Positions 15,956 to 58,556 of a DNA stretch of 64,000 nt are shown here, one piece after another (the first letter of the stretch is position 1; each line of letters begins with the position of its first letter). The notes under the pieces were generated by a model. That model was not told the origin of the DNA, searched no databases, and saw only the letters and a list, made by a program, of their open reading frames with translations. Where the stretch lies: assembly GCA_963821525.1 (NCBI GenBank), contig CAWGED010000005.1:608001-672000 (forward strand), read 5' to 3'. The DNA is from an uncultured Gemmatimonadales bacterium (GTDB lineage Bacteria > Gemmatimonadota > Gemmatimonadetes > Gemmatimonadales > GWC2-71-9). The translations under genes were made by a program, and so were the position numbers.

Positions 15956-16054
15956 AGTACCTAGTATCGAGTACCGAGTACCGAGAGGCTCCCCACGTGA
16001 GGCCTGATACTCGGTACTCGGTACTCGGTACTCGGTACTCGGTACTAGGTACTA
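15956..16054. repeat. Inverted heptamer tandem-repeat hairpin (AGTACCG / GGTACTC)
   Basis: 4 units at 15956-15985 and 7 reverse-complement units at 16006-16054. Confidence 0.9.
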
Positions 16055-16138
16055 AGTGCCTACTAGCCCTCCCCGTCCGATCGCGCTAGCTTCGCCACTC
16101 TGTCTCCGGCAATTCTCCCTCCAGGCAAGGGTCCAATC

Positions 16139-16414
16139 ATGACAGCCGAGCAGCCCGGCGGTTCCGAACTCAAGCCGATCACGCCGGCCCGAGTTGCCCA
16201 GGAACTTTCCAAGCTCAGTGCCGACAAAAAGGCGGGACGCGTTCAACCCGATGCTTATGACATGCGGTTCGCCAAGATCATCCATGAGCTTCGCGAGCGC
16301 CGGATCGATGGCGGCCGTCCCGAGGTCGTCGCGGCGCTGAAACCGCTTGTCGACAACGGCGACATCACGGCGCAGGAGTACGATCGGCTGCTGAAGCAGC
16401 TGGGAATGAGTTGA
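16139..16414 (+). CDS. Hypothetical helical protein, 91 aa
   Basis: Codon usage typical of this genome, AAGG RBS, fills the gap between two hairpins. Confidence 0.75.
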   Translation: MTAEQPGGSELKPITPARVAQELSKLSADKKAGRVQPDAYDMRFAKIIHELRERRIDGGRPEVVAALKPLVDNGDITAQEYDRLLKQLGMS

Positions 16415-16424
16415 GGCAATGATC

Positions 16425-16536
16425 GAATGCCGGAGTGGCGGAATGGAGGAATGAGGTCCGGCTCCTGACCTCTCCTCCCCCTGTCACCCAATTCGAGCAT
16501 TCCGCCATTCTTCCATTCCGCCATTCACCCATTCCC
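16425..16536. repeat. Inverted octamer tandem-repeat hairpin (GAATGGCG / CATTCCGC)
   Basis: 4 units at 16425-16456; 5 complementary units at 16498-16536 abutting the next ATG. Confidence 0.88.
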
Positions 16537-17292
16537 ATGTCCGCCGCCCCACCCCTCTCCCCCCTCGAAATGACGGTTCAGGCCGTAGATGGCCTGATCC
16601 TGAAGGGCCTGCTGGCGTATCCTGAGATCGGGCCGGGTAAGGGGTTTCCGCTGGCCGTCCTCGCGCATCAGTATCCCGCCACCGCGGACAGCTACGCACC
16701 CCTGCTGGAAGACCTGCTCGATCTGGGGATTGCGACGCTCGCCTTCGATCTCCGGGGTCACGGCGCTTCCATCGAGGGAACCCATGGCCGTCTGGTGATC
16801 GACAGCCCGGTGGGCTTCACGATGGACGCCTTCGGATTGGCCTTCGTGGGCAGTGCAGGCAAGGTGGGGTTCAAGCACATCAATGACGACATCATTCGCG
16901 TGGCGAGCTGGGGTGCGGTGCAGAACTTCATCGATGCCGGCCGTCTCATCCTGGTCGGCTCCAGCGTCGCTGGGACCGGTGCGGTGCTCGCTGCCCCCAA
17001 GGTGCCGGGGCTCGCGGCGCTGATAACCTTCTGCGCGGCGGGCGAGCCGGTCTGGGGTGATGACGGCCGCGCCCAGGCGCGGAAGGCGATGGAGCTGCAC
17101 CAGGCGCCGAGTCTCCTCGCGACGTCGGAAAAGGATCCCTTCGATGGAGCCGGCAACGTGAAGGCCTGGAGCGAAGGCCTGCGCCACGTGAAGCCGCTTC
17201 TCGTACCGGGCGCAGCCCACGGGATGGCGATCTACTATGATGTACGCGATGAGGTCCTGGAGTTTGTGAAACAATTGAAGATTGCTGATTGA
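16537..17292 (+). CDS. Alpha/beta-fold hydrolase
   Basis: FDLRGHGAS, LVGSSVAG nucleophile elbow, EKD, GAAHG. The start is placed at the ATG after the repeat. Confidence 0.82.
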   Translation: MSAAPPLSPLEMTVQAVDGLILKGLLAYPEIGPGKGFPLAVLAHQYPATADSYAPLLEDLLDLGIATLAFDLRGHGASIEGTHGRLVIDSPVGFTMDAFGLAFVGSAGKVGFKHINDDIIRVASWGAVQNFIDAGRLILVGSSVAGTGAVLAAPKVPGLAALITFCAAGEPVWGDDGRAQARKAMELHQAPSLLATSEKDPFDGAGNVKAWSEGLRHVKPLLVPGAAHGMAIYYDVRDEVLEFVKQLKIAD

Positions 17293-17397
17293 TGATTGCT
17301 GATTGAAAAGCGCTGATGCTCGATGCTGAACCCTGATTGGACTTGAAGTGAAAGCAGTTCAATCGGCAATCGGCAATCGACAATCATCAATCTGCAG
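17273..17397. repeat. Inverted heptamer tandem-repeat hairpin (GATTGCT / GGCAATC)
   Basis: 5 units at 17273-17307 overlapping the stop codon and 5 complementary units at 17358-17392. Confidence 0.88.
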
Positions 17398-17403
17398 CTC
17401 CCC

Positions 17404-18279
17404 ATGCTCACCCGACCACTAGGCCCCAACCTCCCCGCCGTCACCATCGTCGGCTACGGTGGCATGCACCTTTCCCTCGACAGCCGCCCTCCCGACGATA
17501 TCGGCGTCAAGGTGATTCACGCCGCCCTCGATACCGGCGAGACGCTGATCGATACCGCCGACGTGTACTGTCTCGACCAGAATGACGTTGGACACAACGA
17601 ACGGCTCATTGCCCGGGCGCTCCGCGAATGGAGCGGCAACCGGGAGAACATCCTGGTCGCGACCAAAGGCGGACTGATAAGACCGACCGGGCGCTGGGAT
17701 CGGGACGCGCGTCCTCAGCAGCTGCGCCAGGCCTGCGACCGGTCGCTCAAGGCGCTCGGCGTCGAGCAGATCGCACTCTACCAGCTCCACGCGGTGGATC
17801 CCAACGTGCCGCTCGAAGAGAGCCTCGGCGCGATGGTCGATCTCCAGAAGGCAGGAAAGATCCGAGCGATCGGCCTGTCCAACGTCTCCGTCGATGAGAT
17901 CAAGCGCGGTGAAAGGGTTACGACCATCTCCACCGTGCAGAACCGCCTCAACCCCTTCTTCCGGGAAGCGATTCGTGAAGGCGTCATCGACTACTGTGCG
18001 ACGCGGGGGATCGGGTTCCTCGCCTACAGCCCAACCGGTGGCGCACGACTCACCAGGAAACTGCCCAGTCACCCGGTGTTGCAGCAGGTCGCCCGTCGGC
18101 TCAACAGCACGCCCCATCAGGTCACCATCGCCTGGGACATTGCCCAGGCATCGACGGTGTTTGCCATCCCGAGTTCGAGAACCGTCGAGCATGCACTGGA
18201 CGGCGCCAAGGCCGGCGACCTGACGCTCTCCCCGGAAGACATCAGCGCTATTGACCAAGCCGAATTCGATAGGTCGTAG
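17404..18279 (+). CDS. Aldo/keto reductase
   Basis: IDTADVY, ATKGG, LYQLH, GKIRAIGLSN, LAYSP. Confidence 0.92.
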   Translation: MLTRPLGPNLPAVTIVGYGGMHLSLDSRPPDDIGVKVIHAALDTGETLIDTADVYCLDQNDVGHNERLIARALREWSGNRENILVATKGGLIRPTGRWDRDARPQQLRQACDRSLKALGVEQIALYQLHAVDPNVPLEESLGAMVDLQKAGKIRAIGLSNVSVDEIKRGERVTTISTVQNRLNPFFREAIREGVIDYCATRGIGFLAYSPTGGARLTRKLPSHPVLQQVARRLNSTPHQVTIAWDIAQASTVFAIPSSRTVEHALDGAKAGDLTLSPEDISAIDQAEFDRS

Positions 18280-18280
18280 C

Positions 18281-18440
18281 GGAAGACGGAAGACGGGAAG
18301 GGGGCAATTGAAGATTGATGATTTCAGATTGAAGATTTAGGGCCATATCGAGCGAAAAACCCAATCTGAAATCTGAAATCTGCAATCTGCAATTTCCGTC
18401 TCCCGTCTCCCGTCTCCCGTCTCCTTTCTCCCGTCTTCCC
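18281..18440. repeat. Nested double heptamer hairpin (outer GGAAGAC/GTCTCCC, inner GATTGAA/TGAAATC)
   Basis: Outer arms at 18281-18301 and 18395-18440; inner arms at 18306-18340 and 18360-18394. Confidence 0.9.
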
Positions 18441-18455
18441 CTTATCTTCCCCCCC

Positions 18456-19931
18456 ATGCCAGCGACAGCTCGACGCCAGACCGTAACCACCTGGGTGGGG
18501 AGGGTGGCTCTGGGTTCCGGTTACCCGGTCGTGGTCCAGTCCATGACCAATACCGACACGGCGGACGTCGAGGGGACGATCGCGCAGGTCGCGGCTCTCG
18601 CTCTGGCGGGAAGCGAGCTGGTGCGCGTCACAGTGAACAACGACGAGGCGGCGGCCGCGGTGCCTGCCATCGTCGAAGGCCTGGATCGGATCGGCGTCTC
18701 GGTCCCTGTCATTGGGGACTTTCACTACAACGGCCACCTGCTTCTCACCAAGTACCCCGCCTGCGCCCAGGCCCTCGCGAAGTACCGCATCAATCCCGGT
18801 AACGTGGGCGGCAAGCGCGCGGACCAGAACTTCCGCGCGATCATCGAGGTTGCGCTGCAGAACGGAAAGCCGGTTCGGATCGGCGTGAACTGGGGTTCGC
18901 TCGATCAGACCCTGCTGACCGAGATGATGGATCACAACCATCGGCTCGCCGAACCTCGTGATGCGCGCGATGTCACCATGAGCGCCATGGTCGAGAGCGC
19001 GCTTCGCTCGGCGCGGCTGGCCGAGTCGTATGGCATGCCGCATGAGCGAATCATCCTGAGTGCCAAGGTTTCCGGAGTACAGGATCTGGTGGACGTCTAT
19101 CGCGCGCTCGCTCAGGGCGGAGACTACCCGCTGCACCTGGGCCTGACCGAGGCGGGGATGGGGATGAAGGGCATGGTCGGGAGCGCCGCCGGTCTCGCGA
19201 TCCTGCTGCAGGAAGGGATCGGCGATACCATCCGTGTCTCTCTCACGCCCAGGCCCGGCGGCGACCGCACCGAAGAAGTCGCCGTCGCACAGCAGGTGCT
19301 CCAGTCCCTCGGATTGCGGAGCTTCACCCCGCAGGTCACCGCCTGTCCCGGCTGCGGCCGCACCACCAGCACCTTCTTCCAGCAGATGGCCGAGGATATT
19401 CAGGGCTACCTGCGGCAGCAGATGCCGGTGTGGCGAGCCCGTTATCCCGGTGTCGAGGAGCTGAGGGTCGCCGTCATGGGATGTGTCGTGAACGGTCCGG
19501 GAGAATCGAAGCACGCCAACATCGGGATTTCACTCCCGGGGACCTTCGAAGAACCCAAGGCGCCGGTCTACGTGGATGGCCGGCTTCTCGTCACTCTCAA
19601 GGGAGACGGCATTGTCTCCGAGTTCCTCGGGATCCTGAATCAGTATGTGGAAAGCCGGTATGGGGGGGAAATGGCGGAATGGCGGAATGGCGGAATGGCA
19701 GAAATGGCGGCGAGCCCAGCGCCGGACGGACAATTCCGCCTAGTAGCCGCGAGCCCTAGGTCATCACCATCCATTCCGCCATTCATCATTCCAGCCATTC
19801 ATCATTCCGCCATTCCCCTAATGCCCGTCCCCCTCGACCAGGCCCTCCGCGATCATCCGCTGCTGGCGATTCCGGCGCTCTTCGGCGGCAGGCGTCGCTC
19901 ACCAGTCTCACTCCCTGCGTCTACCCGATGA
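18456..19931 (+). CDS. ispG: (E)-4-hydroxy-3-methylbut-2-enyl-diphosphate synthase; homology ends near 19665 and the 3' end is uncertain
   Basis: [60 protein letters not shown]. The ORF runs on through a repeat. Confidence 0.95.
19669..19818. repeat. Inverted octamer tandem-repeat hairpin (GAATGGCG / CATTCCGC)
   Basis: 5 units at 19669-19709 and complementary units at 19768-19818; same class as 16425-16536. Confidence 0.88.
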
Positions 19932-20520
19932 TTCCGATCACCGCCGGCCTGCTCGGCGGAGCAAGTGCTGCGGAGCGGTCCCGATCTCGCACTCTTCTTT
20001 ACTCTGTCCTCTACGCTCTGGGTCTCGCCCTGGTGTACGCGACCCTGGGTCTACTCGCCGGCCTGAGCGGATCGATTTTCGGCACGGTGAGCTCCAATCC
20101 GTGGGCCTACTTCATCATGGGGAACCTGCTCCTCGTGTTCGGGCTCGCGATGTTTGACGTGTTTTCAGTCACTGCACCGTCCGGGCTCCTGCAATGGGCT
20201 TCGAATCTCACTGGCCGGTCCGCCGGTGGTGCGTTTCTGATGGGTGCGACTTCCGGCCTGGTCGCTGCGCCATGCGGTGCGCCCGCCTTCGCCGCGGTTC
20301 TGACCTTCGTAGCCGCAACCCGTAGCGCGGTGTTAGGATTCGTCTACCTGTTCGTCTTTTCAGTCGGCATGACGGCGCTGCTCATCGGGATCGGGCTCTC
20401 CTCCGGCGTGCTCGCCGCGATGCCACGTAGCGGTCCGTGGATGATATGGATCAAGCGGGCCGCCGGTGTCGTGCTCCTCGGCATGGCCGAGTACTACTTC
20501 ATTCAGATGGGAAAGGTCTC

Positions 20521-20524
<4 letters not shown>
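19821..20524 (+). CDS. ccdA: CcdA/DsbD-type transmembrane electron transporter (frameshift near 19890)
   Basis: [15 protein letters not shown] and APCGAP redox cysteine motifs; multiple TM helices. Confidence 0.85.
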
Positions 20525-21030
<506 letters not shown>

Positions 21031-21033
21031 GGG

Positions 21034-21613
21034 ATGTTCATGCGGAAATTCTCACTCTTGCTGGGGTGCCTCGTCGCTCTCACCTCGGGCGCGGCCGCCC
21101 AAGGCGCGGGCGCCGGCATCGGCCTTCCTCGCTTCAGGTCCCACTCAGGGTGACCGGGCGCCGGATTTCTCGCTTCCCTGGGCGTCGAAGGACGGTGTCG
21201 GGGACGAGCAGTGGTTCAGCCTCACCGCACAGCGGGGGAAGACGATCGTGCTCGCCTTTTTCCCTGCCGCTTTCACCAAGGGCTGCACCTCCGAGATGCA
21301 GACCTTCACCGAGCGCTATGACGAGCTGTTCGGGCCTGACGTTGTCGTGGCGGCCATCAGCTACGACAGTGTGGAGACGCAAGCTCGTTTCGCCTCGAGC
21401 CTCGGCGTTCCCTTCAAGCTTCTGAGTGATCCCGACCTCGCCGTCGCCAAGAAGTACGGGAGTGCCAACTCCGATGGCAGGGCCAGGCGGACAGTGTACG
21501 TGATCGACAAGGGCGGCCGGGTCGCCTATCGAGACCTCCGCTTCAACGCGGTCGATCCTTCCTCCTACAGCGACTTGAAGCAGGCCGTTCAGGCCGCCCT
21601 CAAGGCCAAGTAG
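21034..21613 (+). CDS. Exported peroxiredoxin, BCP/PrxQ-like (frameshifted N-terminus)
   Basis: FFPAAFTKGCT (PxxxTxxC), LLSD, RTVYVID; signal peptide MRKFSLLLGCLVALTSGAAA in an upstream frame. Confidence 0.82.
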
Positions 21614-22452
21614 TGGCCGGTCAGTTGGGCCGGCGCCGCAGGGCGAGGGTTACCCTCGCCCTGGCCCTTTTCTGGGGTGCCGCGGCCAACCTCCGAGCTC
21701 AGAGCGGACCCAAGACCGACGCCCAGCTGATCTGGAAGCTTGAGGAGACGTCGAGCGGCTGGTGCCTCCAGTTCCTGATCGATCCCACCAAGGCGGGGGA
21801 GGACCTGCCCGACAAGGCCATGCCGGTCTCGGCCATGGATGCCGGGGAGCTCCACCCCGCCATCAGTCGCCTCATCTCGGACGAGCCGCAGTACGCTCGG
21901 TGGGTGCCCTCGGTCGTCTGCTCCTATTTCTTCGGAGCGGTAACCGTAGACGGCCACCGGGTCGAAAAGGGGAAGAAATCCATGCCCGCGATCGCCTGGT
22001 GGGGGGTCCTCGCGCGCTCACCCAGCGATACGGCCCCCGTTTTTGCCCTCCGCTTCCTCGCCACGAACAACTATCGGGTCCAGAAGCCCACCGAAGCGGC
22101 GAAGGTCAACATGGAGGCGCTCGATCTCACGATCGAGCAGGTACCCGAGACCGGGGATGACCGATATACCCTCAAATACGGGAAGACACTGGTCGTCTTC
22201 GACGGCCATGCTGCTCCGGACACAACCCTCCGGTCGGGCGCGGTTAGCCAGATCTGGTGGGCCGAGGGCGACGCCTCCACCGTCTGGCGGGCCTCGGCCG
22301 ATCTCCGCCCTTCAGCGACGCACGGGCTCGTGGGCGCGCTCCGGATACAAGGGAAGGGGGACTTGGCCGACCTCCTCAAGGCCTCTCCCATCCGCCTCGT
22401 AGGGCCGATTCACTCCGGAGGAGACGGAGAGGTTAACTTCTTCCGCCGGTAA
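21613..22452 (+). CDS. Hypothetical exported protein
   Basis: 279-aa ORF coupled to the upstream gene, with a signal-peptide-like N-terminus. Confidence 0.7.
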   Translation: MAGQLGRRRRARVTLALALFWGAAANLRAQSGPKTDAQLIWKLEETSSGWCLQFLIDPTKAGEDLPDKAMPVSAMDAGELHPAISRLISDEPQYARWVPSVVCSYFFGAVTVDGHRVEKGKKSMPAIAWWGVLARSPSDTAPVFALRFLATNNYRVQKPTEAAKVNMEALDLTIEQVPETGDDRYTLKYGKTLVVFDGHAAPDTTLRSGAVSQIWWAEGDASTVWRASADLRPSATHGLVGALRIQGKGDLADLLKASPIRLVGPIHSGGDGEVNFFRR

Positions 22453-22510
22453 GGCCCCCCTCTGGATCGAAGGTTGCGGGACGCCCGCCGACTCATTTCA
22501 CCGGTTTGAG

Positions 22511-23071: not shown

Positions 23072-23074
23072 CCG

Positions 23075-23364: not shown

Positions 23365-23390
23365 TGACCATCGACGCGCTTCCCTGACCC

Positions 23391-26493: not shown

Positions 26494-26623
26494 TTGAGCG
26501 GTAGGCGGTAAGCGGGAAGGCTACCAACTCTCGCCGTCAGGATATTGAAGAAGGTATTTCACCTCACCGGCTCGCTCACCGCTCACACGCTCACCGCTTA
26601 CCGCTCACCGCTTACCGCTTACC
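26494..26623. repeat. Inverted heptamer tandem-repeat hairpin (GTAAGCG / CGCTTAC-CGCTCAC)
   Basis: Units at 26494-26520; complementary units at 26563-26623. Confidence 0.88.
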
Positions 26624-30631: not shown

Positions 30632-30640
30632 TGTTTGAGA

Positions 30641-30765
30641 GGGAGTAGGGAGTAGGTGGTCGGGAGTAGGGGATGCGGCCATAAGCTATAGCCGCCGATC
30701 CCGACTCCTAGTCACCCTCCCGGACGATCTTACACCCCACTCCCTACACCCTACTCCCTACAACC
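30641..30765. repeat. Inverted heptamer tandem-repeat hairpin (GGGAGTA / TACTCCC)
   Basis: Units at 30641-30675; complementary units at 30701-30765. Confidence 0.85.
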
Positions 30766-30770
30766 TATTC

Positions 30771-33470
30771 ATGCGTCTACTCCTGCTCCTCCTGTTGTTG
30801 CCCGCTACTGCCCGCGCCCAGGACTTCGACTTCTACGCCCGCGGCCCCTACCGGAGCCAGGTCCCTCGTCCCGATACGCTCCTGGGATATCGCGTCGGCT
30901 CTCAGCAGACGATGTACTACCAGCAGCAGCAGGTGTTCGACCGCATGATCGCGGCGGCATCCGATCGGGTCCGGACCGAGGTGATCGGACGCTCGGTGGA
31001 AGGGAAGGTGATGCGGCTCCTGATCATTTCGTCGCCGGAGAACATCGCGCGGCTGGATCAGATCCGGGCCGATCTGGCGAAACTGGCCGATCCGCGGAAG
31101 ACGACGGCGGAGGAGGCGGCGGCGATCGCCCAGCGCACGCCGGTCACCGTGTTGCTGACACACTCGGTACATGGCAACGAACCAGCCGGGTTCGAGGCCT
31201 CGATGCAGACGGCCTACCAGCTCCTGGCTTCAGATGAGCCGGCGACCCAGGCCATTCTCAAGAACTGTGTGGTGCTGATCAACCCGTCGCAGAATCCCGA
31301 TGGCCACGAGCGCTTCGCGGCGTGGTACAACTCGGTAGCGGTGGGAACCGACGAGCCCGCGGCGCTCGAGCAGACCGAGCCCTGGGCCATCTGGGGTCGC
31401 TACAATCACTACCGGTTCGACATGAACCGGGATCAGTTGGCGCAGTCGCAACCGGAGAGCCAGGCCCTGGGAAGTGTCTACGTCCGCTGGCGGCCCCAGG
31501 TGATCGCCGATCTGCACAGCACCACGTCGCAGTACTTCTTCCCGCCGGTGGCCGAGGCGCACAACAAGAATCTCCCCTCGACCACGTATCAATGGTTCGA
31601 GCGTTTCGGCCGGAACAATGGCCGCGCCTTCGACGGCTACGGGTGGCAGTATTACGTGCGGGACATCTTCGACTTCTTCTATCCCGGCTACATCGACATG
31701 TGGCCCACGATGCGCGGCGGACTCGGCATGACGTTCGAGACCGACGGGGGGCCGGAGCTCAAGAAGCGGAAGGACGATGGGACCTGGACCACGTTCGAAA
31801 TGGCGATTGCGCACCACTACATCGCCTCGTTGACGACTCTCGCCACCGCCGCCGACAGCAGGGCCGAGCTGCTCCAGGACTTCTACCAGTTCCACTCGAC
31901 CGGCATGAACGAGGTGAAGAACCGGCCGATGAAGCGGGTCGTGTTCCTCGCCTCACCCGATCCCGCGCGGGCGCGCTGGCTGGCCCGCCGCCTCGCGCGG
32001 GAGGAGATCCAGGTGGTCCAGACCACCAAGCCGTTCACGGCGCTCAAGGCGAACTCCTACCTGGGAGGTGCCGCGGCGCAGCACACGTTCCCCGCGGGGA
32101 GTTATGTGGTCGATCTCGCTCAACCCGAGGCGCGTCTCGCCACCAGCATCCTCGAGCCCAAGGCCGTGTTCGATTCCGGTTTCGTCCGGAAGGAGCTGGA
32201 CAAGTACGATCGTAACCAGGTGCGCGGACGCCGGGCCGGCAGCGAGGGCTACGACTTCTACGACATTACCGCCTGGTCACTGCCACTCACGCTGGGCCTC
32301 GACGCCTGGTGGACCGAGGACACGCCTTCGATCGCCGGCGATACGGTCACGGTTGACGGCAAGTTGCCCGAGGTTGCCGCCCCGCTCAGGGCCCAGTCGG
32401 CATACGTGTTCACCGACGAGGCACAGGCCGGAACCAGCCTCGCCTACCGGCTGCTCGATGAAGGATTCCGGGTCGGCGTGGCCTCGCAGCAGCTGAGAGC
32501 CGACGGCAAGGCTTATCCGCGCGGGACATTCGTCGTTCGGGTCCAGCGCAATCCGGCCTCGGTGCACGAGCGGATCGCTGCCCTGTCCCGGGAGCTCGGC
32601 GTGCCGGTTACCGCCGTCGGCTCGGCGTTCCCCGACAGCGGCGATGCCGGTGTCGGCAGCGAGAGCGTCGAGGCGCTGAATCGCCCGAAGATCCTGCTCG
32701 CCGCCGGAGACGGCATCGATCAGACCGCCTTCGGTGCCGTCTGGTTCTATCTCGAGAAGGAAGTCGGCATGCGGGTCGTGCCGGTCAATCTCTCCAGCCT
32801 CCGCCGGATCAACCTGGCCGACTATAACTGCCTCATCCTGGCCGGGGGCGACGGCGACGACCAGTGGAACGAGTTGGGCAGCGAAGGCGGCGAGAAGCTC
32901 AAGGCGTGGGTCGAATCCGGTGCGGCGGTGATTGCGATCGGAGACGCGGCGACCCTCCTCTCCCGGAAAGAACTCAAGCTGACCGGACTTCGAATCGTGG
33001 GCGAGGAGGATTCGACCGCCAAGGTCGCGAAGGACACGACCGCGAAGGACACGCTGGTGAGCGAGCGGGCCAAGCCGGCGCCGCCTCTGGTCTCTCCCAG
33101 CGCTGCCGCTGGAAGCCGGCCCGAGTTCATTCCCGGCGCCATCTTCCGCGCGACCCTCGACCGCACCCACTGGCTCACCTACGGCTACGAGCGAGATCAG
33201 TTGCCGGTCTTCATCGAGTCGAGTCGCTTGCTCAAGCCTTCCGAGCGCGGCGCCAATCCGGTGGTGTTCGTCGGGAAGGACCTGACACTCGCCGGCTTCA
33301 CCTGGCCCGACAACACCGAGAAGTATCTCAGGAACGCGGTGTGGGCCACGGTGGAGAACTCGGGCAGCGGGCGAGTCATCGTGTTCGCGGACAATCCGGT
33401 CTACCGCGGATTCTGGCGCGGAACGGCGAAGCTCCTGACTAACGCGATTCTGCTGGGACCGCAGCGCTGA
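30771..33470 (+). CDS. Exported M14-family zinc carboxypeptidase
   Basis: Signal peptide, SVHGNE, NPDG, DMNRD, DLH motifs; C-terminal GATase-like domain. Confidence 0.9.
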   Translation: MRLLLLLLLLPATARAQDFDFYARGPYRSQVPRPDTLLGYRVGSQQTMYYQQQQVFDRMIAAASDRVRTEVIGRSVEGKVMRLLIISSPENIARLDQIRADLAKLADPRKTTAEEAAAIAQRTPVTVLLTHSVHGNEPAGFEASMQTAYQLLASDEPATQAILKNCVVLINPSQNPDGHERFAAWYNSVAVGTDEPAALEQTEPWAIWGRYNHYRFDMNRDQLAQSQPESQALGSVYVRWRPQVIADLHSTTSQYFFPPVAEAHNKNLPSTTYQWFERFGRNNGRAFDGYGWQYYVRDIFDFFYPGYIDMWPTMRGGLGMTFETDGGPELKKRKDDGTWTTFEMAIAHHYIASLTTLATAADSRAELLQDFYQFHSTGMNEVKNRPMKRVVFLASPDPARARWLARRLAREEIQVVQTTKPFTALKANSYLGGAAAQHTFPAGSYVVDLAQPEARLATSILEPKAVFDSGFVRKELDKYDRNQVRGRRAGSEGYDFYDITAWSLPLTLGLDAWWTEDTPSIAGDTVTVDGKLPEVAAPLRAQSAYVFTDEAQAGTSLAYRLLDEGFRVGVASQQLRADGKAYPRGTFVVRVQRNPASVHERIAALSRELGVPVTAVGSAFPDSGDAGVGSESVEALNRPKILLAAGDGIDQTAFGAVWFYLEKEVGMRVVPVNLSSLRRINLADYNCLILAGGDGDDQWNELGSEGGEKLKAWVESGAAVIAIGDAATLLSRKELKLTGLRIVGEEDSTAKVAKDTTAKDTLVSERAKPAPPLVSPSAAAGSRPEFIPGAIFRATLDRTHWLTYGYERDQLPVFIESSRLLKPSERGANPVVFVGKDLTLAGFTWPDNTEKYLRNAVWATVENSGSGRVIVFADNPVYRGFWRGTAKLLTNAILLGPQR

Positions 33471-36166: not shown

Positions 36167-36473
36167 GAAAGACGGTAGGTGGGGAGACGGGACAGCGTGA
36201 GAAGTAAGAGGTGAGATGTGAGAAGGCGGAGTTGTCAGCGTCGCTCCGTCGTGCTCATCCTTCTCACTTCTCACTTCTTGCTTCTCACGCTTTTCCTGTC
36301 CCCCTCCCTCGGCTATATTGGGCTGCCCCAGGTCCGAAGGGCGCTGGCGCGCGAACCGCGTCAGGACCTCGCCGGTAGCAGCGCTAAGCGATGTCCGGTG
36401 TCGCTTCGGGGTGCCTGGGGCATTTTTCTTTCTCTCCATCTCCCGTCTCCCGTCTCCCGTCTCACGTCCGTCC
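36167..36473. repeat. Nested heptamer hairpin (outer GGGAGAC/GTCTCCC, inner GTGAGAA/TTCTCAC); outer arms enclose ffs
   Basis: Inner arms at 36197-36224 and 36261-36288; outer arms at 36167-36195 (degenerate) and 36438-36473. Confidence 0.8.
36324..36422 (+). ncRNA. ffs: Signal recognition particle small RNA (4.5S)
   Basis: Terminal stem TGCCCCAGG/CCTGGGGCA, helix-8 core GAACCGCG-TCAGG-ACC..GGT-AGCA-GC, TATATT -10 box at 36314, T-tract after the stem, position upstream of dnaX. Confidence 0.88.
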
Positions 36474-48896: not shown

Positions 48897-48917
48897 CGCA
48901 GGGAATTCTCCGGCCCG

Positions 48918-50951: not shown

Positions 50952-52027
50952 ACGATCACCCCCCCGCCGAGCACTCGGCCCTCGGGGGAATACAGGACCC
51001 CTGACTGTCCCGGCGTGATGGCCCGAATCGGGAGTCTCCAGAGACGAGCCGGATTCGGTCATCGCTCGCGGGCGGTCACGGTCGCTGGCACCGCGCGGGA
51101 ACGATAGCGCAGCTGGACCTGGCAGCTTTCGCCGACGGGCAGCGGCTCGGACAACCAATTCAACTCGGATAGTTCGACTGTGTGGCCGAGCAGCTCATCG
51201 GCCGACCCGACTACGACCTCGCGGGTCGCAGGACGAATGGCCACCACGTACCTCGGCTCCGAGCTCCCGCCTGGCAATCCCTTCCGCTGCCCGATGGTGA
51301 ATCGGGCGAATCCCTGATGCTCGCCGAGCATTTCGCCGCTGGTGCTGACCAGCGGTCCCGGACTCAGAGCTGGGGCCTCTTCCGGCAGATTGCGCTCCAG
51401 AACCGACACGTAATCGTCGTCCGGCACGAAGCAGATCTCGACCGATTCCGGCTTGTCCGCAGTCCGCAGTCGAAGCTTCCGGGCAATGGCACGGGTTTCC
51501 GGCTTGGTGAGGCCGCCGACCGGCGTAAGCATGCGGGCCACGACGGCGCGATCGATCCCCCACAGGAAATAGCTCTGGTCCTTCGCCGGATCGGCTCCGC
51601 GGTACAGCGCGCCCTCCCGGGCGATCGCGTAATGTCCGGTCGCGATGTGCCCGCAGTCGAGCGCGTCCGCGTGGGCAAGCAGGTCGCGGAACTTGGTGAA
51701 CGAGTTGCAGCGGACGCACGGAATGGGAGTCCGGCCCTGGCTGTACTCCTGCACGAAGTTCTGAATCACGTGGAGATTGAAGCGGTCCTCCAGATTCAGC
51801 ACGTAGTGCGGGATGCCCAGCTTGTGGGCGACGTCCTTGGCGTCGTTGATCGAGTCGAGCGAGCAGCAGGGACGGTCGGGCACCGAATCGCCGTAACAGA
51901 ACAGCTTCATCGTGGCGCCCACCACGTCGTAGCCCTGCTCGACGAGAGCGGCCGCCGCGACAGAGCTGTCCACCCCGCCCGACATCGCGACGAGCACTCG
52001 GTTGTCCCTGCGAATGCGATTATGCAC
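50948..52027 (-). CDS. mnmA: tRNA 2-thiouridylase MnmA (frameshift near the 3' end)
   Basis: [50 protein letters not shown]...RVLGGG. Confidence 0.95.
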
Positions 52028-53198
52028 GACCGAGCGCCTCCGAAAGCTTGCGGACCTTGCGAACCACGGTCGGGAACACCTCGGCGGCACGATCAACTTC
52101 GGCTTCGGTGGTTTCGTGTCCAAGACTGAACCGCAGCGCGCCCAGAGCGAGTTCTCGGGGGACCCCCATCGCGGTCAGGACGTGGGACGGTTCGACTGCT
52201 CCCGTCGAGCAGGCCGATCCCCCCGAAGCGGCTACACCGGCGAGGTCCAGGTGCATGAGCAGCGCCTCGCTGTCGGCTCCAGACACCAGAACATTCAAAA
52301 TGTGAGGAGCACGCTCGGCCGAATCGCCGCAGACGTGCAAATCGGGAACGCCCTCCCGCAGCTTGCCGAGCAGGCGGTCACGCAGAGCTTGCATACGAGC
52401 GACGGTCGAGTCGAGTTCCGCCACCGCGAGGGCAGCGGCGCGGCCCAGGCCAACGGCACCGGCGACATTTTCGGTGCCGGGCCGGATGCCAAACTGCTGG
52501 CCGCCGCCATGGATGATTGCTTCGAGGGCCTTCCGCTCCCGGACGACCAGCGCACCCACGCCCTTGGGCGCTCCGATCTTGTGTCCGGAAATCGTCAGCA
52601 TGGTGCAGGGGAGTTCGGCAAATCGGATGGGGATCTTCCCGAATGCCTGGACGGCATCGGTGTGCATGAGTGCGCCGGCTTCGGAACATCGTGCCGCAAT
52701 CGACGGGACCGGCTGTACCGTCCCGACCTCGTTATTCACCCACATTACGGAAACCACCGCCGGATGCTCGCGCAGCGTCTGGCTCAACGCGTCCGGTTCG
52801 ACCCGCCCCCCGTTGTCCACCGGCAGGATGCGCTCTTCTCCTCCCAGCTCCTTCACTGCATGGGCGGCGGCCAGTACCGCCTTGTGTTCGGTCGCGCAGA
52901 CCGCGGCGATCATCGGCTGTCCCCGGTGGCGGGCCGCCAGACAGGCGCCGATCACCGCCAGATTGTCCGCCTCGGTGCCGCCGGAAGTGAATACGACCTG
53001 CCCCGGGTCCGCTCCGAGCGCCTCGGCAACCTCCCGCCGGGCCTGTTCCAGTCCCGCCCGGGCGATGCGACCAAAGCGGTGCGAGCTCGAAGGATTCCCG
53101 AAAGCCCCCGCTCCCAGGTATGGCAACATCGCCTCCAGGACCTCCGGCCGAACCGGGGTCGTGGCGGCGTGATCGAGGTAAATGGGGCTGTGCGACAT
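52020..53198 (-). CDS. iscS: Cysteine desulfurase (IscS/NifS type)
   Basis: [48 protein letters not shown]. Confidence 0.93.
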
Positions 53199-53224
53199 GG
53201 GGAGGGAAAATAGCCGTGAACCAT

Positions 53225-53380
53225 GGGAGACGGGAGACAGGAGACGGGAGACGGGAGAGGCGAAGCTGTCATTCCGAGCAAAGCGAGGAATCCCGATGCC
53301 AAGATCGCCCTTGGGATTCCTCGGTCGCTTCGCTCCCTCGGAATGACAGCCCTCTTCCCGTCTCCCTTCTCCCGTCTCCC
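53225..53380. repeat. Heptamer hairpin (GGGAGAC/GTCTCCC) enclosing a REP/MITE-like palindrome
   Basis: 5 units at 53225-53259; complementary units at 53353-53380. Confidence 0.9.
53265..53350. repeat. 86-bp REP/MITE-like palindromic element
   Basis: Perfect 14-bp terminal IR GCTGTCATTCCGAG/CTCGGAATGACAGC; inner 11-bp IR CGAGGAATCCC/GGGATTCCTCG. Confidence 0.85.
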
Positions 53381-54097
53381 CTACAGGCTCTGGACCTCGA
53401 GTTTCACCACGTCATCCACCCGCATGGTTTCCTGGGTGAAAAACGGCTCTCCATACCGGGTACGAATCAGGGACCCGTAGTGGGCATTCTGGGTTTCGAT
53501 GAGGGAATAGAGATCCTGACCAGTAGGAAAGATTTCGCCCGCGTTCTTGACGCCATCGAATTGGCTGGAATAGCACTTGATGGCGGCCAGTTTCCGGTCA
53601 AACTGGGCCGAAATGTCGACCACGAATGTGGGCTTCACCGGGTCTTCGCGGTACGCGAGGGAATACAGCAGCTTGTGAGGGCGGTGAGGTTCCCCGCCAG
53701 CATCGTACTTGGCCAGACCGGCGAGGAAGCAGGCGTCGCGCCCAAGCTCCGAAGCGATTCTGTGATCCGGGTGTCTGCCGATGGGGAAGGGCAGGATCAC
53801 GACTCGGGGAGCGAAGTGCCGAATCTGTTCGACGACGATTCGGCGCGCCTCCTCGCTGTTTTGCAAGTGCGCGTCAGGCAGTCCGGCGTTCCGGCGTTCG
53901 GCCACTCCCAGGATCTTCGCGGCCCGCTCCGCCTCATCCCCCCGCAGCTTCGCGCTTCCATGGGTTCCGCTTTCTCCCGCCGAGAGATCCAGAATTCCCG
54001 TTCGGTGGCCTTGATCGACGGCCTTGAGCAAGGTGCCGGCACAGGTCAGTTCGACGTCGTCGCGGTGGGCGGCGATGGCGAGGAGATGGACGGACAT
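53381..54097 (-). CDS. bshB1: Bacillithiol biosynthesis deacetylase (PIG-L family)
   Basis: AHRDDVEL.CAGT, GESGTHG, RHPDH, KPTFVVDIS, YSSQF, YGEPF. Confidence 0.85.
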   Translation of the reverse strand: MSVHLLAIAAHRDDVELTCAGTLLKAVDQGHRTGILDLSAGESGTHGSAKLRGDEAERAAKILGVAERRNAGLPDAHLQNSEEARRIVVEQIRHFAPRVVILPFPIGRHPDHRIASELGRDACFLAGLAKYDAGGEPHRPHKLLYSLAYREDPVKPTFVVDISAQFDRKLAAIKCYSSQFDGVKNAGEIFPTGQDLYSLIETQNAHYGSLIRTRYGEPFFTQETMRVDDVVKLEVQSL

Positions 54098-54100
54098 GAG

Positions 54101-54191
54101 GGGTCAGTGGCCAGGGGTCAGGATAGCAGGTGTCAGGGAAACGGATTGCAAGATACTCTTCAACCTGATCCCTGACACCTGACCCCTGGTA
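54101..54191. repeat. Inverted heptamer hairpin (GTCAGG(T/G) / CCTGAC(A/C))
   Basis: Arms at 54101-54138 and 54164-54191. Confidence 0.85.
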
Positions 54192-54211
54192 TCACGCCCG
54201 CACGCGAAGGA

Positions 54212-54793
54212 ATGCTGATGTCCCCCGACCTTCATTCGAAAGCGCGTTCCTCAAGAGTCCTCCAGCGCCATGTCACGCTGGCCTTGGGGCTGTGCCTGGG
54301 CTGTGCTACCAGCGGGGTTGCTCCGGTGGAGTACCCTGCTGTCAGGGTCTATCACGCCGATACGGGTTCGGTCTCCGCGGCCGTCCGCCAGGTGGCAGAG
54401 TCGCTCGACGTGAAGCTGACGCCTGATTCTCCCTGGAAGAAGACAACCGCCCTTTACTTTGAAGGACATTGGAACGAGCAACCCAAGTCGGGTCAAGAAC
54501 ATAAGACTTGGCACACCAAAGACTACATGACGTGCCCCCGCGATCCTGCTGGAATGCAGCTCAGTCTGAAGACCGGGGAGACCCAGAACACCGCGTCGCT
54601 GAGCTTGCGGATACAATTGCGGCCGGTTGTTCCCGACAGCGTCGCACTCCAAATGGGAGTCCGGGCTGCCCAATCAGAGATGGACGAAGGGCAAGTGACC
54701 TGGATGGACTGCGAGAGCAAGGGGAAGTTCGAGGGGATTTTTCTTGCGGCGATGGATTCGGTGTTGGGGGTGAGTCAGAGTGAGCGGCAGTAG
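54212..54793 (+). CDS. Orphan putative lipoprotein
   Basis: GAAGG RBS, hydrophobic stretch ending LCLGC-ATS (lipobox-like), opposite strand to neighbours, visibly lower GC. Confidence 0.7.
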   Translation: MLMSPDLHSKARSSRVLQRHVTLALGLCLGCATSGVAPVEYPAVRVYHADTGSVSAAVRQVAESLDVKLTPDSPWKKTTALYFEGHWNEQPKSGQEHKTWHTKDYMTCPRDPAGMQLSLKTGETQNTASLSLRIQLRPVVPDSVALQMGVRAAQSEMDEGQVTWMDCESKGKFEGIFLAAMDSVLGVSQSERQ

Positions 54794-54857
54794 GTGTCAG
54801 GTTACAGATGTCAGGGAAGAGAGCCTCCCTGACACCTGACCCCTGACACCTGGCACC
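54793..54857. repeat. Inverted heptamer hairpin (GGTGTCA / TGACACC) between convergent stop codons
   Basis: Arms at 54793-54817 and 54826-54857. Confidence 0.87.
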
Positions 54858-55748
54858 TAGCTCGCTACCGCCAAACCCCGCCGCCGCCACCACCGGCGGA
54901 CGGTCAGGATCCCAGCCATTCCTACTAGGCCCAGTGGAACCACCACGCCGAGCGATGCAATGATTGTAGCGTTCAGGTTCACGAAGTTGCGCCAGGCCCG
55001 CTGGAAAGCCTCGGCGATGACGGGCGAGCCCCGATACGGTCCCTGAATCGGCAGGGGTTCGTGGATCGAAATTGTAAGGCTGCTCATCGAGGCGTGCGCG
55101 GACAGGTAGCGCAGCCGGCCCTCGTAACGCTCGATCTCCTCCCGTACCCGCGCCAGCTCCCGCTCAACCTCCAGCACGTCCTGAAGCTTGCCAGTGCGCT
55201 TCGCGAGCAGCTCGATCAGCCGGTCTTCGAGCCGCTTGCCATTGATGATCCGGGCCGCGACGTCGGCATACTCCTCGCCCACGTCCTGGGCCGTGATATT
55301 GACGTATTCCACCTTGCCCAGCGGCGACATCCCGTTGACCAGTTCGTCGAAGCGCTCCGAGGGAACCCGGAGCTCGATGGACGCGGAGCGGTATTGCGCC
55401 GATCCGGCCTGATAGGAACTGTTGGCGAGATAGCCTCCGAGGCGGCCGGCAAGCTGGCGCAACTGAGCGACTGAGTTTTCCAAAGAATCGACTTCGACAC
55501 TGGCTTGTCCCGTCCGAATCACCATTACCCCGGGCAGCGAGGGGCGGGCGATCGGCTGGGCGTAATTCACCTGTCCTTCAGCAACCTTCCCGCCGGCCAC
55601 GGCATCGGCGGGTGCCGGTGCCGCGAGCTGCCTGCAGTGCATCACGTCTTTCGTTCGCTTCATCCTTGCTTTTGGCATCGAAGGCGGCACCCTCAGCCAG
55701 GCATGCGGCCACGGTGAGGGTTAGGGCGGCTGCCATCCAGGAACGCAT
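54857..55748 (-). CDS. DUF4349 domain membrane protein (frameshifted N-terminus)
   Basis: VIRTG...EVD, ELRVP, QDVGEEYAD, VLEVERELARVREEIERYEGRLRYL, C-terminal TM; GAGG RBS and ATG at 55748. Confidence 0.82.
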
Positions 55749-55821
55749 CTTGTCCTCGGGTCAGGGGTTGCGAGGGGATGCGCCAGACACCGAGAGTTGC
55801 ACAGAACTGTGGGGAAACGGG

Positions 55822-55906
55822 AAAAAGCGTGAGAGGTTAGAGGTAAGAAGGGAGAGGGAAGCTCAGTGCCCGTCTCACTTCTCACTTCTCACCTCTGACG
55901 CTCTTT
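55822..55906. repeat. Inverted heptamer hairpin (GTGAGAG / TTCTCAC)
   Basis: Arms at 55829-55856 and 55872-55899. Confidence 0.85.
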
Positions 55907-55911
55907 GGATA

Positions 55912-57150
55912 TTATTCGTGTCTGAGAGCTTCGACGGGGTCCATCGCCGCCGCCCTATTGGCCGGATAGAGCCCGAACACGAGCCCGATCATGATGCTGA
56001 CCAGGGTGGCCACGACGGCGCTCCACAACGGGACGCCGGATTGGAGGTTCAGCACTTCCTTCAGGACATGACCGGTGGCGAGGCCGAAGGCGATGCCGAG
56101 GAGCCCGCCGATGAAGGTCAGCGTCGCCGACTCGACGAGGAACTGCCAGAGGATCTCCTGACGGGTGGCGCCGAGTGCCTTGCGCAGTCCGATCTCGTGG
56201 GTCCGGTCGGTGACCGAAACCATCATGATGGCCATGACGCCGATCCCGCCGACCAGCAGAGCCACGCTCGAGAGGGCAACCATGACCCCGAAGAACGCGG
56301 TGGTCAGGTTGCTGATGGTATCGAGGATCTGGTCCTGGGTGATCACGTCGAACGTGTTCGGCATGCCAGGCCGAAGCCGCCGTTCCCGCCGAAGCGCCGC
56401 AATGGTGAGGTCCTTCGCGATGGGGACCGAGACCCGCGGCCATCCCTTCACCGAGAGAAAGAGCCCATTGGTCTCGTCATAGTGGTAGTTCCGCTTGGCG
56501 GTGACGAAGGGCATGATGGCGCCGATCTGCTGTCCCGGCGGTTCGAAGATGTTGGCCGGCCGCTGATAAATGCCGATCACGGTGAGCGCGACGCCGCCAA
56601 CCCGGATCCGCCGGCCCATTGGGTCGATCTCGCCGAACAACCGGTCCGCCGACTCTTCTTCCAGAACCACGACGGGCTCGCCATCCAGTTCCGAGGGAGC
56701 GAAGAAGCGGCCCCGGAGCAGGGTGCCGCCCAGGATCTCCATGTAGTGCTCGTCCGCTCCGTAGACCGTGACCGTCTGGGTCGAGACTCCCTGGTACTCC
56801 ATGCGGAGGAACATCTGGACCCAGATCCCGGCGTATTCAATCTCGGGGACGTCGCGGACAGCGATCGCGTCCTCTTCGGTGAGAACCGGACGGATCCTGA
56901 CCTCATACGGCAGATGGTCGGGATTGAGCGGGGTCTGGCTGAAGAACCGCATCACGTAGAACGCGCTCGGCCCCGCCGTGTTCATGGCGTTGAAGATCTG
57001 GCCGCGAATGCCCTCCACGATCGATGCCATCGCCATCACGGTAGAGACGCCGATCACGACGCCCAGAATCGTCAGTGCGGAGCGGAGCTTGTTGGAGCGC
57101 AGGGCGTCCAGTGCGATCCCGATTCCTTCGTCGAGGTTCCGAAGGATCAT
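55912..57150 (-). CDS. MacB/FtsX-family ABC permease
   Basis: NKLRSALTILGVVIGV, VGGIGVMAIMMVSVTDRTHEIGLRKALGA, DPVEALRHE. Confidence 0.93.
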   Translation of the reverse strand: MILRNLDEGIGIALDALRSNKLRSALTILGVVIGVSTVMAMASIVEGIRGQIFNAMNTAGPSAFYVMRFFSQTPLNPDHLPYEVRIRPVLTEEDAIAVRDVPEIEYAGIWVQMFLRMEYQGVSTQTVTVYGADEHYMEILGGTLLRGRFFAPSELDGEPVVVLEEESADRLFGEIDPMGRRIRVGGVALTVIGIYQRPANIFEPPGQQIGAIMPFVTAKRNYHYDETNGLFLSVKGWPRVSVPIAKDLTIAALRRERRLRPGMPNTFDVITQDQILDTISNLTTAFFGVMVALSSVALLVGGIGVMAIMMVSVTDRTHEIGLRKALGATRQEILWQFLVESATLTFIGGLLGIAFGLATGHVLKEVLNLQSGVPLWSAVVATLVSIMIGLVFGLYPANRAAAMDPVEALRHE

Positions 57151-57151
57151 G

Positions 57152-58396
57152 TCATTCGGCGCGGAGGGCGGTGATCGGATCGAGCCGGGCCGCTCGCGTG
57201 GCGGGATACACCCCGAAGATGATGCCGGTCCCGGTGCCCAGCAGGAGAGCGACACCAATTGACCACATCGTCACCCGGGCGGGGAGCGGCGTGAAGGCTG
57301 AGACTGCGAGCGAGAGGAGGTACCCGCCCAGCACTCCCTGGATGCCGCCGAGGGTGGAAAGCACCATCGCCTCGATGAGAAACTGGCGGCGGATGTCCGC
57401 CCGAGTGGCGCCGAGCGACTTCCGGATGCCGATCTCCCGAGTGCGCTCGTTCACCGTCATGAGCATGATGTTCATGATGACAATACCGCCCACTACGATC
57501 CCGATGCAGACCACCGCGGGGACTACGGTAAAAAGCACCTGGGTAAGGCTACGCCAGAACGCGACCAGCGCGTCTGCTTTGTCAACCGTGAAATCGTTGG
57601 GCTCATTGGGACGCAGCTTATGAGCGACGCGCATCGCCTCCTCGGCCCGCTCCATGGCGGAGGGGAGGAGATCGGAGCTGGCCATCTTGACCGAGACGGT
57701 AGTGGTCTTGCGTCGGCCGTAGATCGCCTCGAAGGTCGAAATGGGCACCAGGGCGAAGCCGTCGAAGGACTGGCCGAGGACCCGGCCCTTTTTCGCGGTG
57801 ACTGCCTTGACCGTCATTTCGCGCCCAGCCAGGCGGATCCTCCGGCCGATGGCCTGGTCTGCTCCCCCGAACAACTTGTCCGCCACGTCGTATCCCAAGA
57901 CCACCACATAGCGCCGCTCCCGGACGTCGGGATCGGCGAGTGGCTCCCCCGCCACGAAGCGATAGTCCTGCACCACCTGGTAGGGGGGAGTGACTCCGAA
58001 GATCAGCACATCGCCGACCGTGCGGTTCCGGTAGGTCACGTCGGTCGTCGGAGTAGGCCATCCGGACTGGAGGGAGACGGCCTGGGCGTCCGGGATGGCG
58101 CGATGAACGACGGCTGCGTCTTCCCGGGAGAGCCGTGGGCGCTTCGCGATCTCTCGCAATTCGTCATCGCTCAGGAGACCGACGGCGATCGGGGTGCGGC
58201 GGACCTGAAACGCGTTGGTCCCGATGACGGCCCCGGTGATGTTCTCCTTCACGTACGCGTTCATGCCCTGGATCACCGCGACCACGGTGACCAGGAACCC
58301 GACTGACACGATGATGCCCAGGAGGGTGAAGAAGGAACGAAGCTTGGCGCCGAGAATGGACTGCACCGCCAGCTTAAAGGCTTCGTAGAAAGGCAT
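57152..58396 (-). CDS. MacB/FtsX-family ABC permease
   Basis: KLRSFFTLLGII, VGGIVIMNIMLMTVNERTREIGIRKSLGA, DPITALRAE. Confidence 0.93.
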   Translation of the reverse strand: MPFYEAFKLAVQSILGAKLRSFFTLLGIIVSVGFLVTVVAVIQGMNAYVKENITGAVIGTNAFQVRRTPIAVGLLSDDELREIAKRPRLSREDAAVVHRAIPDAQAVSLQSGWPTPTTDVTYRNRTVGDVLIFGVTPPYQVVQDYRFVAGEPLADPDVRERRYVVVLGYDVADKLFGGADQAIGRRIRLAGREMTVKAVTAKKGRVLGQSFDGFALVPISTFEAIYGRRKTTTVSVKMASSDLLPSAMERAEEAMRVAHKLRPNEPNDFTVDKADALVAFWRSLTQVLFTVVPAVVCIGIVVGGIVIMNIMLMTVNERTREIGIRKSLGATRADIRRQFLIEAMVLSTLGGIQGVLGGYLLSLAVSAFTPLPARVTMWSIGVALLLGTGTGIIFGVYPATRAARLDPITALRAE

Positions 58397-58411
58397 GCTG
58401 GAAAATACCAA

Positions 58412-58556
58412 GGGAGACGGAAGACGGGAGACGGGAAAAGTATGAGAACATGAAGCGAAAATGAAGAAGTGAGAAGTGCGCTCAACGACGCCCCTCTCAC
58501 CTCTCACTTCTTACATCTCACGTGTTTTCTCTTCCCGTCTTCCGTCTCCCGTCTCC
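58412..58556. repeat. Nested double heptamer hairpin (outer GGGAGAC/GTCTCCC, inner GTGAGAA/CTCTCAC)
   Basis: Outer arms at 58412-58440 and 58530-58556; inner arms at ~58462-58480 and 58494-58521. Confidence 0.88.

Follow-up and report, generated by a model that had tools for sequence, protein, structure and literature searches.

Tandem heptamer repeats are known from cyanobacteria, where they are called short tandemly repeated repetitive (STRR) sequences, and the intervening sequences (IVS) of 23S rRNA may bear open reading frames (ORFs) for proteins of the S23p/IVP family. Avd, a protein of the diversity-generating retroelements (DGRs), binds RNA. Heptamer repeats of the form GGGAATC and GGGGA(C/T)T were described in Xanthomonas and Nostoc by Rehm et al. 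2015 (PMC4692102) in a gene-less form whose function was left open, and the available text of that report names no partner gene and no tie to mobile elements; the TAACTGA arrays of Beggiatoaceae (MacGregor 2015, PMC4679880) are direct repeats with a proposed translational role, and the available part of that paper does not mention a four-helix-bundle gene. Doublets made up of repetitive extragenic palindromes (REPs), the REPINs, were defined by Bertels and Rainey 2011 (PMC3116915). The window analyzed here, 64,000 nucleotides from an uncultured Gemmatimonadales bacterium (assembly GCA_963821525.1, contig CAWGED010000005.1, positions 608,001 to 672,000), contains thirteen hairpins, to which a sequence-only reading had pointed, each with a left arm of 7- or 8-base tandem units, a spacer and a reverse-complement arm. 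Hairpins of this kind and cassettes bearing a gene of the IVP family (PF05635/TIGR02436) are probably, in our cautious judgement, parts of one protein-plus-repeat system resembling that of the REPINs and the REP-associated tyrosine transposases (RAYTs). The gene-bearing form would consist of left arm, promoter, IVP gene and right arm, at about 14 per genome, and the gene-less form would be the hairpin, at about 300 per genome.

IVP Genes Enclosed by Repeat Arms

In the genome of this window (G000; 4.33 Mb, 81% complete), arm pairs standing 440-600 bp apart enclose four-helix-bundle genes, which belong to the PF05635 and TIGR02436 family and answer the earlier suggestion that the genes between arms be listed and that this family, among others, be tested. 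Thirteen PF05635 matches and one broken copy give 14 IVP places, two of which are apparently one locus assembled twice, and frameshifts may be assembly errors. Two arrays were found by a strict scanner at 9 of the 14 places, compared with 0.28% of random windows, and arms are visible by eye at the remaining five. The flanks of all 14 read as protein genes (rRNA loci were not separately searched), several of the IVP genes being antisense to the flanking operon. Arm pairs lying far apart around ordinary genes (sixA-like, CBS and others) were judged to be the arms of neighbouring elements and not to mark cargo. A short CGCGTTTT-like motif was observed 15-35 nt inside the left arm in the interiors of some cassettes (such as L075, L077, L082 and L089) and is possibly part of the cassette promoter.

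The same enclosure was observed well beyond this genome. Among relatives, represented by 70 listed IVP loci from about 190 matches in 41 genomes, matching inverted units occur at 47 of the 64 loci with full flanks (permuted mean 2.1, maximum 8), one unmatched row being from the unpublished G018; across phyla, 51 of 80 IVP loci, the best 80 of 517 matches, have arms (permuted mean 2.8), as against 0 of 73 when the flanks were shifted by 700 bp. The dominant arrays in G020 and G026 match an IVP arm of the same genome. In a blind metagenome scan that relied solely on the Xanthomonas unit from the literature, placed as inverted arms with 410-440 nt between them, 13 of 24 stretches (two identical) enclose an IVP gene; among 401 sampled genomes the pattern identified no Xanthomonas-type genome. 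The left arm of Xanthomonas-type metagenome cassettes (L268, L272-L275, L286) directly follows the upstream stop codon and is in frame with the IVP gene, with a possible ATG inside. A plasmid search returned IVP matches in 22 of 72,556 records, mostly cyanobacterial; at five cyanobacterial loci examined among these 22 records, clear inverted arms were seen at three, a right arm only at one, and the fifth was unclear. A Pseudanabaena plasmid (L266) carries its IVP gene between cas6 and cas4, with long AAAAGCT/AAAAGCC arrays. Cyanobacterial (Nostoc) IVP genes carry GGGAGTA/GGGGAGT arms, so that the likeness to STRR, formerly called superficial, goes deeper than that. A single IVP query gave no match in 50,697 phage records or in IMG/VR contigs.

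Solved structures matched by the IVP protein are 2GSC (Xcc0516) and 2RLD; both have five chains and are pentameric rings. A fold search returned these two structures, DGR Avd (TM score 0.80 over Avd) and unrelated bundles only, and comparison with the Avd model NF033474 gave an E-value of 3e-8 and 33.9 bits, under the 80-bit cut-off.

Pairing, Polarity and Position of the Arrays

Across G000, 706 arrays of period 7 and 139 of period 8 were observed, whereas period 10 yielded 14 and period 11 yielded 8. A reverse-complement arm lies within 200 bp for 431 of the 845 arrays, against 33-49 when units were permuted among loci, 21 with the reversed unit and 33 with the complemented unit, and the inverted pairing noticed in the window thus holds genome-wide. 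The polarity is fixed for each class (347 versus 3 arrays, in classes with at least 4 members, both arms of an element being counted). Merging of the arms gave 296 paired elements with a median spacer of 41 nt, the commonest paired class being of the GGGAGTA/GGGGAGT type. The first arm, described as purine-rich by the sequence-only reading, is so in 100 of 129 close pairs and not in the remainder, such as the GCCGTCA class. Near-identical stretches on the contig pairs C12/C13, C12/C1 and C4/C9 suggest duplicated assembly, which slightly inflates the counts. The arrays are not an assembly artefact, because arms are carried both by congeneric assemblies (n = 4, at the same junctions) and by a read-derived contig of RNA run X1, which spans 17367-17547 with one mismatch and one gap. 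No joint skipping a hairpin was seen among the listed metatranscriptome contigs (four runs, 85% likeness, sparse cover).

Identity between a left arm and the right arm of the same element is 87.3%, and with the right arm of another element it is 87.4% (p = 0.79; 153 elements in classes with at least 4 members), and mirrored deviations are as frequent within an element (104/365) as between elements (300/1084), which confirms that the arms are not simple inverted duplications and hold non-mirrored variants. At co-directional junctions the sense strand shows 107 G·U pairs versus 140 A·C mismatches, without a G·U excess. Arms with 3.5-5.5 copies account for 371 of 591, 4-5 copies being dominant. 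Because the arms are not mirror copies and no G·U bias is present, it is the unit and not the stem that is conserved: unit, orientation and a copy number near 4-5 are maintained, the duplex is not, and the earlier suggestion of an RNA-level signal, taken as one in the stem, is weakened.

The distance from arm to stop codon has a median of 3 nt (353 cases), the same median being found for lone left-type arrays, and in 210 of the 296 elements a stop is touched at one end or both; these distances rest on a crude gene caller of our own and are partly circular, because an arm can itself supply the stop. TAG makes up 105 of 253 arm-adjacent stops versus 1129 of 4809 overall, an excess that may reflect target choice or arm-supplied stops. 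Among convergent junctions 135 of 703 hold an array, among co-directional ones 334 of 3388 and among divergent ones 54 of 699, and 698 of the 845 arrays lie outside gene calls.

Most spacers are unique within G000 (168 singletons of 233), and the clusters that do exist are REP doublets, nested arms, a terminator-like family and duplicated contig stretches. The uniqueness asserted by the sequence-only reading stands within this genome for the most part; across species, the spacer at 18280 is not unique. Terminator-like palindromes of the form CCCTCCG...CGGAGGG were observed inside spacers of several arm classes (C4:318191, C5:550691, C5:202689, C19:413264 and others).

Unit Class and IVP Lineage

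Cassettes and hairpins share their arms, the polarity of the arrays is fixed, their position is at stop codons, and the unit follows the IVP lineage. Clades of the IVP tree (80 rows, 122 columns, many unresolved forks, G018 left out) carry related units across junctions and genera, namely ATT-type units, GGGAGAC/GTGAG, TAGG/TCAGG and 8-mers. For the unit tests, 26 weak-arm rows were dropped, leaving 54, and the removal of near-duplicates left 46. Nine of ten 8-mer cassettes have an 8-mer cassette as nearest protein (P = 0.0002), and the unit distance between nearest neighbours is 2.48 versus 3.34 permuted (across genera only 2.89 versus 3.33). A stronger point than this clade signal is the match of cassette units to distant gene-less hairpins: with at most one mismatch, 162 of the 296 hairpins match a cassette unit of G000 (shuffled units, mean 37) and 250 match a congeneric cassette unit (shuffled units, mean 111, maximum 178).

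Turnover at Orthologous Junctions

Orthologous junctions were observed in filled, empty and re-occupied states, and one whole inner hairpin has been copied between junctions; the junction comparison proposed earlier thus found both filled and empty sites. Four congeners contributed 36 IVP loci, and for 29 of them the corresponding place in G000 was identified. At 19 of these the G000 junction holds an IVP gene too, sometimes just 51-58% identical and with another unit; at the other 10 (7 junctions) the IVP gene is missing in G000, where mostly a hairpin stands instead, whether its class is the same or a different one. In 43 comparisons of hairpins with congeneric junctions, the class was the same in 27, different in 11 and absent by rule in 5, several of which show arrays by eye. 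Homologous spacers were found in 3 of 37 scored congeneric comparisons, the copy numbers of arrays vary between congeners, and other genera showed no array at the junctions of the window.

The 53225 junction (positions without a contig prefix are window coordinates) is cleanly empty in the congener G001, the insert beginning straight after the TAG. The inner hairpin at 18280 was found again, its spacer and the order of its variants unchanged, at the junction of 53225 in G003 and at that of 58412 in G001 and G004 (both G003 and G004 being congeners as well), always within GGGAGAC arms. Since the same hairpin stands at three junctions in four genomes, an element that bears no gene was copied from one locus to another. 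The dedicated process or mobile cassette suspected from the window alone is supported by such filled and empty junctions, together with the IVP genes between the arms.

The Thirteen Hairpins of the Window

The architecture of left arm, spacer and reverse-complement arm was confirmed at 13 of 13 loci, at the places first given; automatic arm pairing recovered 11, and for the other two, at 54101 and 55822, confirmation came from visual inspection and folding. At 9 of the 13, folding gave z = -3.6 to -10.0 (versus 200 dinucleotide shuffles each). Four loci are compound, with nested arms at 18280, 36167 and 58412 and, at 53225, a spacer that contains a REP-like doublet.

The AGTACCG hairpin (15956..16054; arms 15956-15985 and 16005-16054) begins 6 nt past the stop of a TPR gene (14324-15949, plus strand), and its junction keeps the class with a different spacer in G001, G003 and G004. 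The right arm of the 8-mer GAATGGCG hairpin (16425..16535) stops 1 nt short of the ATG at 16537, and GATTG-type classes occupy this junction in G003 and G004; the left arm of the GATTGCT/GATTGCC hairpin (17274..17396) supplies the stop (17292) of a hydrolase gene. The nested element at 18280..18439 has outer GGGAGAC arms (18280-18298 and 18396-18439) around an inner GATTGAA hairpin (about 18305-18393). An 8-mer AATGGCGG hairpin (19670..19816) stands where ispG ends, and the ispG frame reads through it into the start region of the next gene (19670-19931), giving 491 aa versus about 403 in other genera, which is either a read-through extension or an assembly error. The GTAAGCG/GTGAGCG hairpin (26497..26623) lies 3' of pyruvate kinase, its junction holding a GCCGTCA or GCTGTTA class in three congeners, and the right arm of the GGGAGTA hairpin (30640..30770) abuts the ATG at 30771.

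The nested element at 36167..36288, with a decayed outer GGGAGAC arm and an inner GTGAGAA hairpin (36197-36288), lies upstream of a signal recognition particle (SRP) RNA gene (36325-36424), and a right-type TCTCCCG array (36436..36468) follows directly past this gene, which encodes the bacterial small SRP RNA (RF00169) and was the sole match of an Rfam search. At 53225..53380, GGGAGAC arms surround the REP-like doublet (about 53267-53348), beginning right after the TAG of a minus-strand PIG-L gene. Further hairpins are those of the GTCAGGT/GTCAGGG class (54099..54190; fold z -6.2) between divergent genes; the GTCAGGT class (54792..54858) between the two stop codons of convergent genes; and the GTGAGAA/GTGAGAG class (55822..55902; fold z -5.6) 3' of a MacB-like permease gene. 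The last, nested element (58412..58556; fold z -10.0) has outer GGGAGAC and inner GTGAGAA arms, in place of which three congeners hold an inner GATTGAA-type hairpin. A Pfam scan of 34 ORFs found functionally unrelated genes beside the hairpins and neither an IVP gene nor any other candidate partner gene in the window, in agreement with the earlier statement that no candidate enzyme gene lies there. A hybrid sensor gene (6493-11841) contains about 10.7 tandem 276-bp repeats (7096-10055), presumably of the ordinary HAMP type.

Other Repeat-Armed Genes

RAYT-like, GIY-YIG and GxxExxY genes each lie within repeat arms of their own in G000. Four Y1_Tnp (RAYT-like) genes (C12:49440, C12:7145, C1:35924, C19:590173) are accompanied by palindromic REPs of at least 2 classes, and none of the four lies inside heptamer arms; no Y1_Tnp match was found in the array-rich G025 and G026. 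The REP-like TCATTCCGAG/TCATCCCGAG doublet has 139 motif matches in the genome, 28 of them within heptamer hairpins, including that at 53267-53348 of the window, and it brackets small stand-alone GIY-YIG genes (C5:845162, C8:283051, C12:227017). CGTC-type REPs without a dedicated transposase have been reported, as far as the available text goes (PMC3733652), and because the doublet brackets GIY-YIG genes, GIY-YIG is a candidate partner of such REPs. GxxExxY (PF13366) genes stand between their own inverted 8-9-base arms (C5:948723, C4:251119, C8:120644; L255, L256), and arrays like these arms are dispersed in G025. Small GIY-YIG, Y1_Tnp and GxxExxY genes were rejected as mobilisers of the heptamers on account of their own repeats and their being missing from G026 or G025.

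Discussion

Under the RAYT/REPIN-like reading, a five-subunit IVP ring would bind 4-5 tandem units of its own class as single-stranded RNA or DNA, so that selection would act on unit and copy number and not on base pairing. Guided by this recognition, cassettes and hairpins could be inserted and replaced at transcribed gene ends, arm exchange within a class and slippage would reshape the arms, and the cutting and joining might be performed by IVP itself or by host recombination and repair. A bolder proposal is that a transposase-free family of mobile DNA has IVP pentamers as its sequence-specific engine, with every protein lineage reading a 7- or 8-base unit of its own, one unit for each subunit, and with repeat-armed segments installed or swapped in trans where genes end; this is tentative and we hold it possible, not probable.

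Several observations weigh against an IVP-driven system. To our knowledge, no catalytic activity has been assigned to IVP. Seven of 18 IVP-bearing genomes showed no array in samples of 20-60 kb, so IVP is not sufficient; 5 arrays in 425 kb were found in IVP-less genomes (n = 5) versus 82 in 1080 kb of IVP-bearing ones, a difference with p = 0.11 by genome. All four array-rich samples are IVP-bearing, and array density against IVP count gave rho 0.34 (p = 0.22, one genome per genus). The Mantel correlation of unit and protein is a weak signal (rho 0.13; across genera 0.09, within the permuted range), the clade-unit signal could also arise simply because gene and arms are inherited together, and 46 of the 296 hairpins, such as those of ACTGAGG and AATGGCGG, have no matching cassette among those fetched. 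Unlike REPIN copies, the spacers are mostly unique, a 16-mer that recurs elsewhere in G000 being present in only 19 of 135, and the one clean empty site (53225, G001) gave no sign of a target-site duplication.

The best-surviving alternative, which we nevertheless consider unlikely, is that the whole IVP cassette alone moves, with IVP acting in cis, and that the hairpins are inert scars of interior deletion. Such footprints would have unique spacers, as observed, with a G+C content (0.58) nearer to that of cassette interiors (0.55-0.59) than of intergenic DNA (0.63); the nesting of arms from different classes points to repeated visits, and the seven junctions filled in congeners and IVP-less in G000, as well as the different IVPs at one junction, fit in the same way. 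However, the 135 spacers showed no similarity when compared with the inner ends of 25 cassettes, whether of the same class or not (p = 0.33), a tblastn search of G000 found no IVP remnant beyond the 14 places, the gene-less hairpin at 18280 recurs intact at other junctions, and a genome may have 7-13 IVP genes and yet hardly any hairpins.

Host regulation, in which the arrays would be RNA binding sites for termination, decay or translational coupling and IVP a sequence-specific, autoregulating RNA-binding regulator, we rate as decidedly unlikely. The 3-nt median past stop codons, shared by lone left-type arrays, would suit it, as would the RNA-protein complex of which the structural relative Avd is part; according to the available texts, most Xanthomonas repeats are transcribed (Rehm et al., PMC4692102), and translational regulation has been proposed by MacGregor (PMC4679880). 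Against this stand the variation of class and spacer at one junction among congeners and the array-free junctions of other genera, the functionally unrelated flanking genes, an element that reads alike on both strands, and a sense strand lacking the G·U excess.

Amplification of 7-mers by polymerase slippage or through a G-quadruplex tendency, with the IVP genes as passengers, is improbable. Slippage is a published hypothesis, as reported in the available texts of PMC4679880 and PMC4692102, and copy numbers do differ between congeners, but slippage yields direct arrays and not polar inverted ones, and a GGG run is present in GGGAGTA and GGGAGAC and absent from many classes, among them GCCGTCA, GATTGAA, AGTACCG and GTGAGAA. 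Neither IVP enclosure across phyla nor a unit length that tracks the protein lineage is predicted by it; as a sole cause, slippage is largely refuted by the polar inverted arrays, the cross-phyla enclosure and the blind Xanthomonas scan. The writing of repeats onto DNA ends by a reverse transcriptase with an Avd-like IVP, in the manner of telomerase or a DGR, is highly improbable: independent arms, unit-level variation, fixed polarity and the resemblance of IVP to Avd (below cut-off in the NF033474 comparison) would fit such end extension, but a shared template motif was not seen in cassette interiors and RVT_1, the sole reverse transcriptase family model searched, matched in 0 of 5 genomes (G000, G001, G012, G025 and G026, three of them array-rich and 98-100% complete), which leaves the templated synthesis proposed by the sequence-only reading without support. 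That earlier interpretation is, taken together, partly supported.

The link between IVP and its arms joins two questions, the excess of heptamer repeats in bacteria and the role of the widespread IVP/S23 proteins. If the pentamer proposal is true, it would account for the excess of heptamers across bacteria, STRR and the GGGAATC of Xanthomonas among them, and would amount to a protein-to-repeat recognition code of natural origin that has dozens of specificities within a single genus. Should IVP bind or mobilise its own unit, the RAYT/REPIN theme would gain a partner class that is no known nuclease, and a modular scaffold for single-strand recognition would be at hand. With a dozen protein-unit pairs side by side in a single genome, the genus lends itself to a test of specificity in which every protein is set against every unit.

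Comparison with Known Systems

The gene-less hairpins are already in print, and their architecture is less novel than first claimed, the Xanthomonas form having been described by Rehm et al. 2015 (PMC4692102); the link of IVP to heptamer arms was not found in the open-access literature, subscription papers and supplements lying outside this scope. As far as the available text of Rehm et al. goes, both systems comprise intergenic heptamer arrays with a preference for four units and variation among close relatives, both have inverted pairs (70-75 per Xanthomonas genome), and in both a sense-strand G-rich arm lies at most 50 bp past the stop. They differ in that one class per genome is present there and many classes here, including 8-mers, non-GGG classes and nested classes, and a GGG unit of the G-quadruplex-forming kind is present here in some classes only. 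The TAACTGA repeats and the cyanobacterial STRR likewise are intergenic heptamer arrays oriented to gene boundaries, to judge from the accessible descriptions.

MITEs (miniature transposable elements of the inverted-repeat kind) have true terminal inverted repeats and a target-site duplication, whereas the arms here are equally alike within and between elements (0.873 vs 0.874) and no duplication accompanies the one clean empty site. With the 23S rRNA IVS the filled forms, of which the window has none, share the PF05635/TIGR02436 protein and a gene looped out by a stem; the IVS are inserted in rRNA and excised from it by RNase III, whereas the elements described here occupy protein-gene junctions and have tandem-unit arms. 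DGR Avd shares its fold with IVP, but in a DGR a reverse transcriptase stands next to avd with template and variable repeats, and RVT_1 was found in 0 of 5 genomes here. The REPIN/RAYT system, as presented in the available text (PMC3116915), has the most in common: many gene-less inverted doublets over-represented in extragenic space, each class beside its own single-copy gene with several classes per genome, and insertion into existing elements. It has palindromic REPs and an HUH tyrosine transposase as partner, whereas tandem 7/8-mer arms, unconserved spacers and a four-helix-bundle PF05635 protein were observed here. By defining features the present system is not a member of REPIN/RAYT, MITE, DGR or rRNA IVS, and it probably works like REPIN/RAYT.

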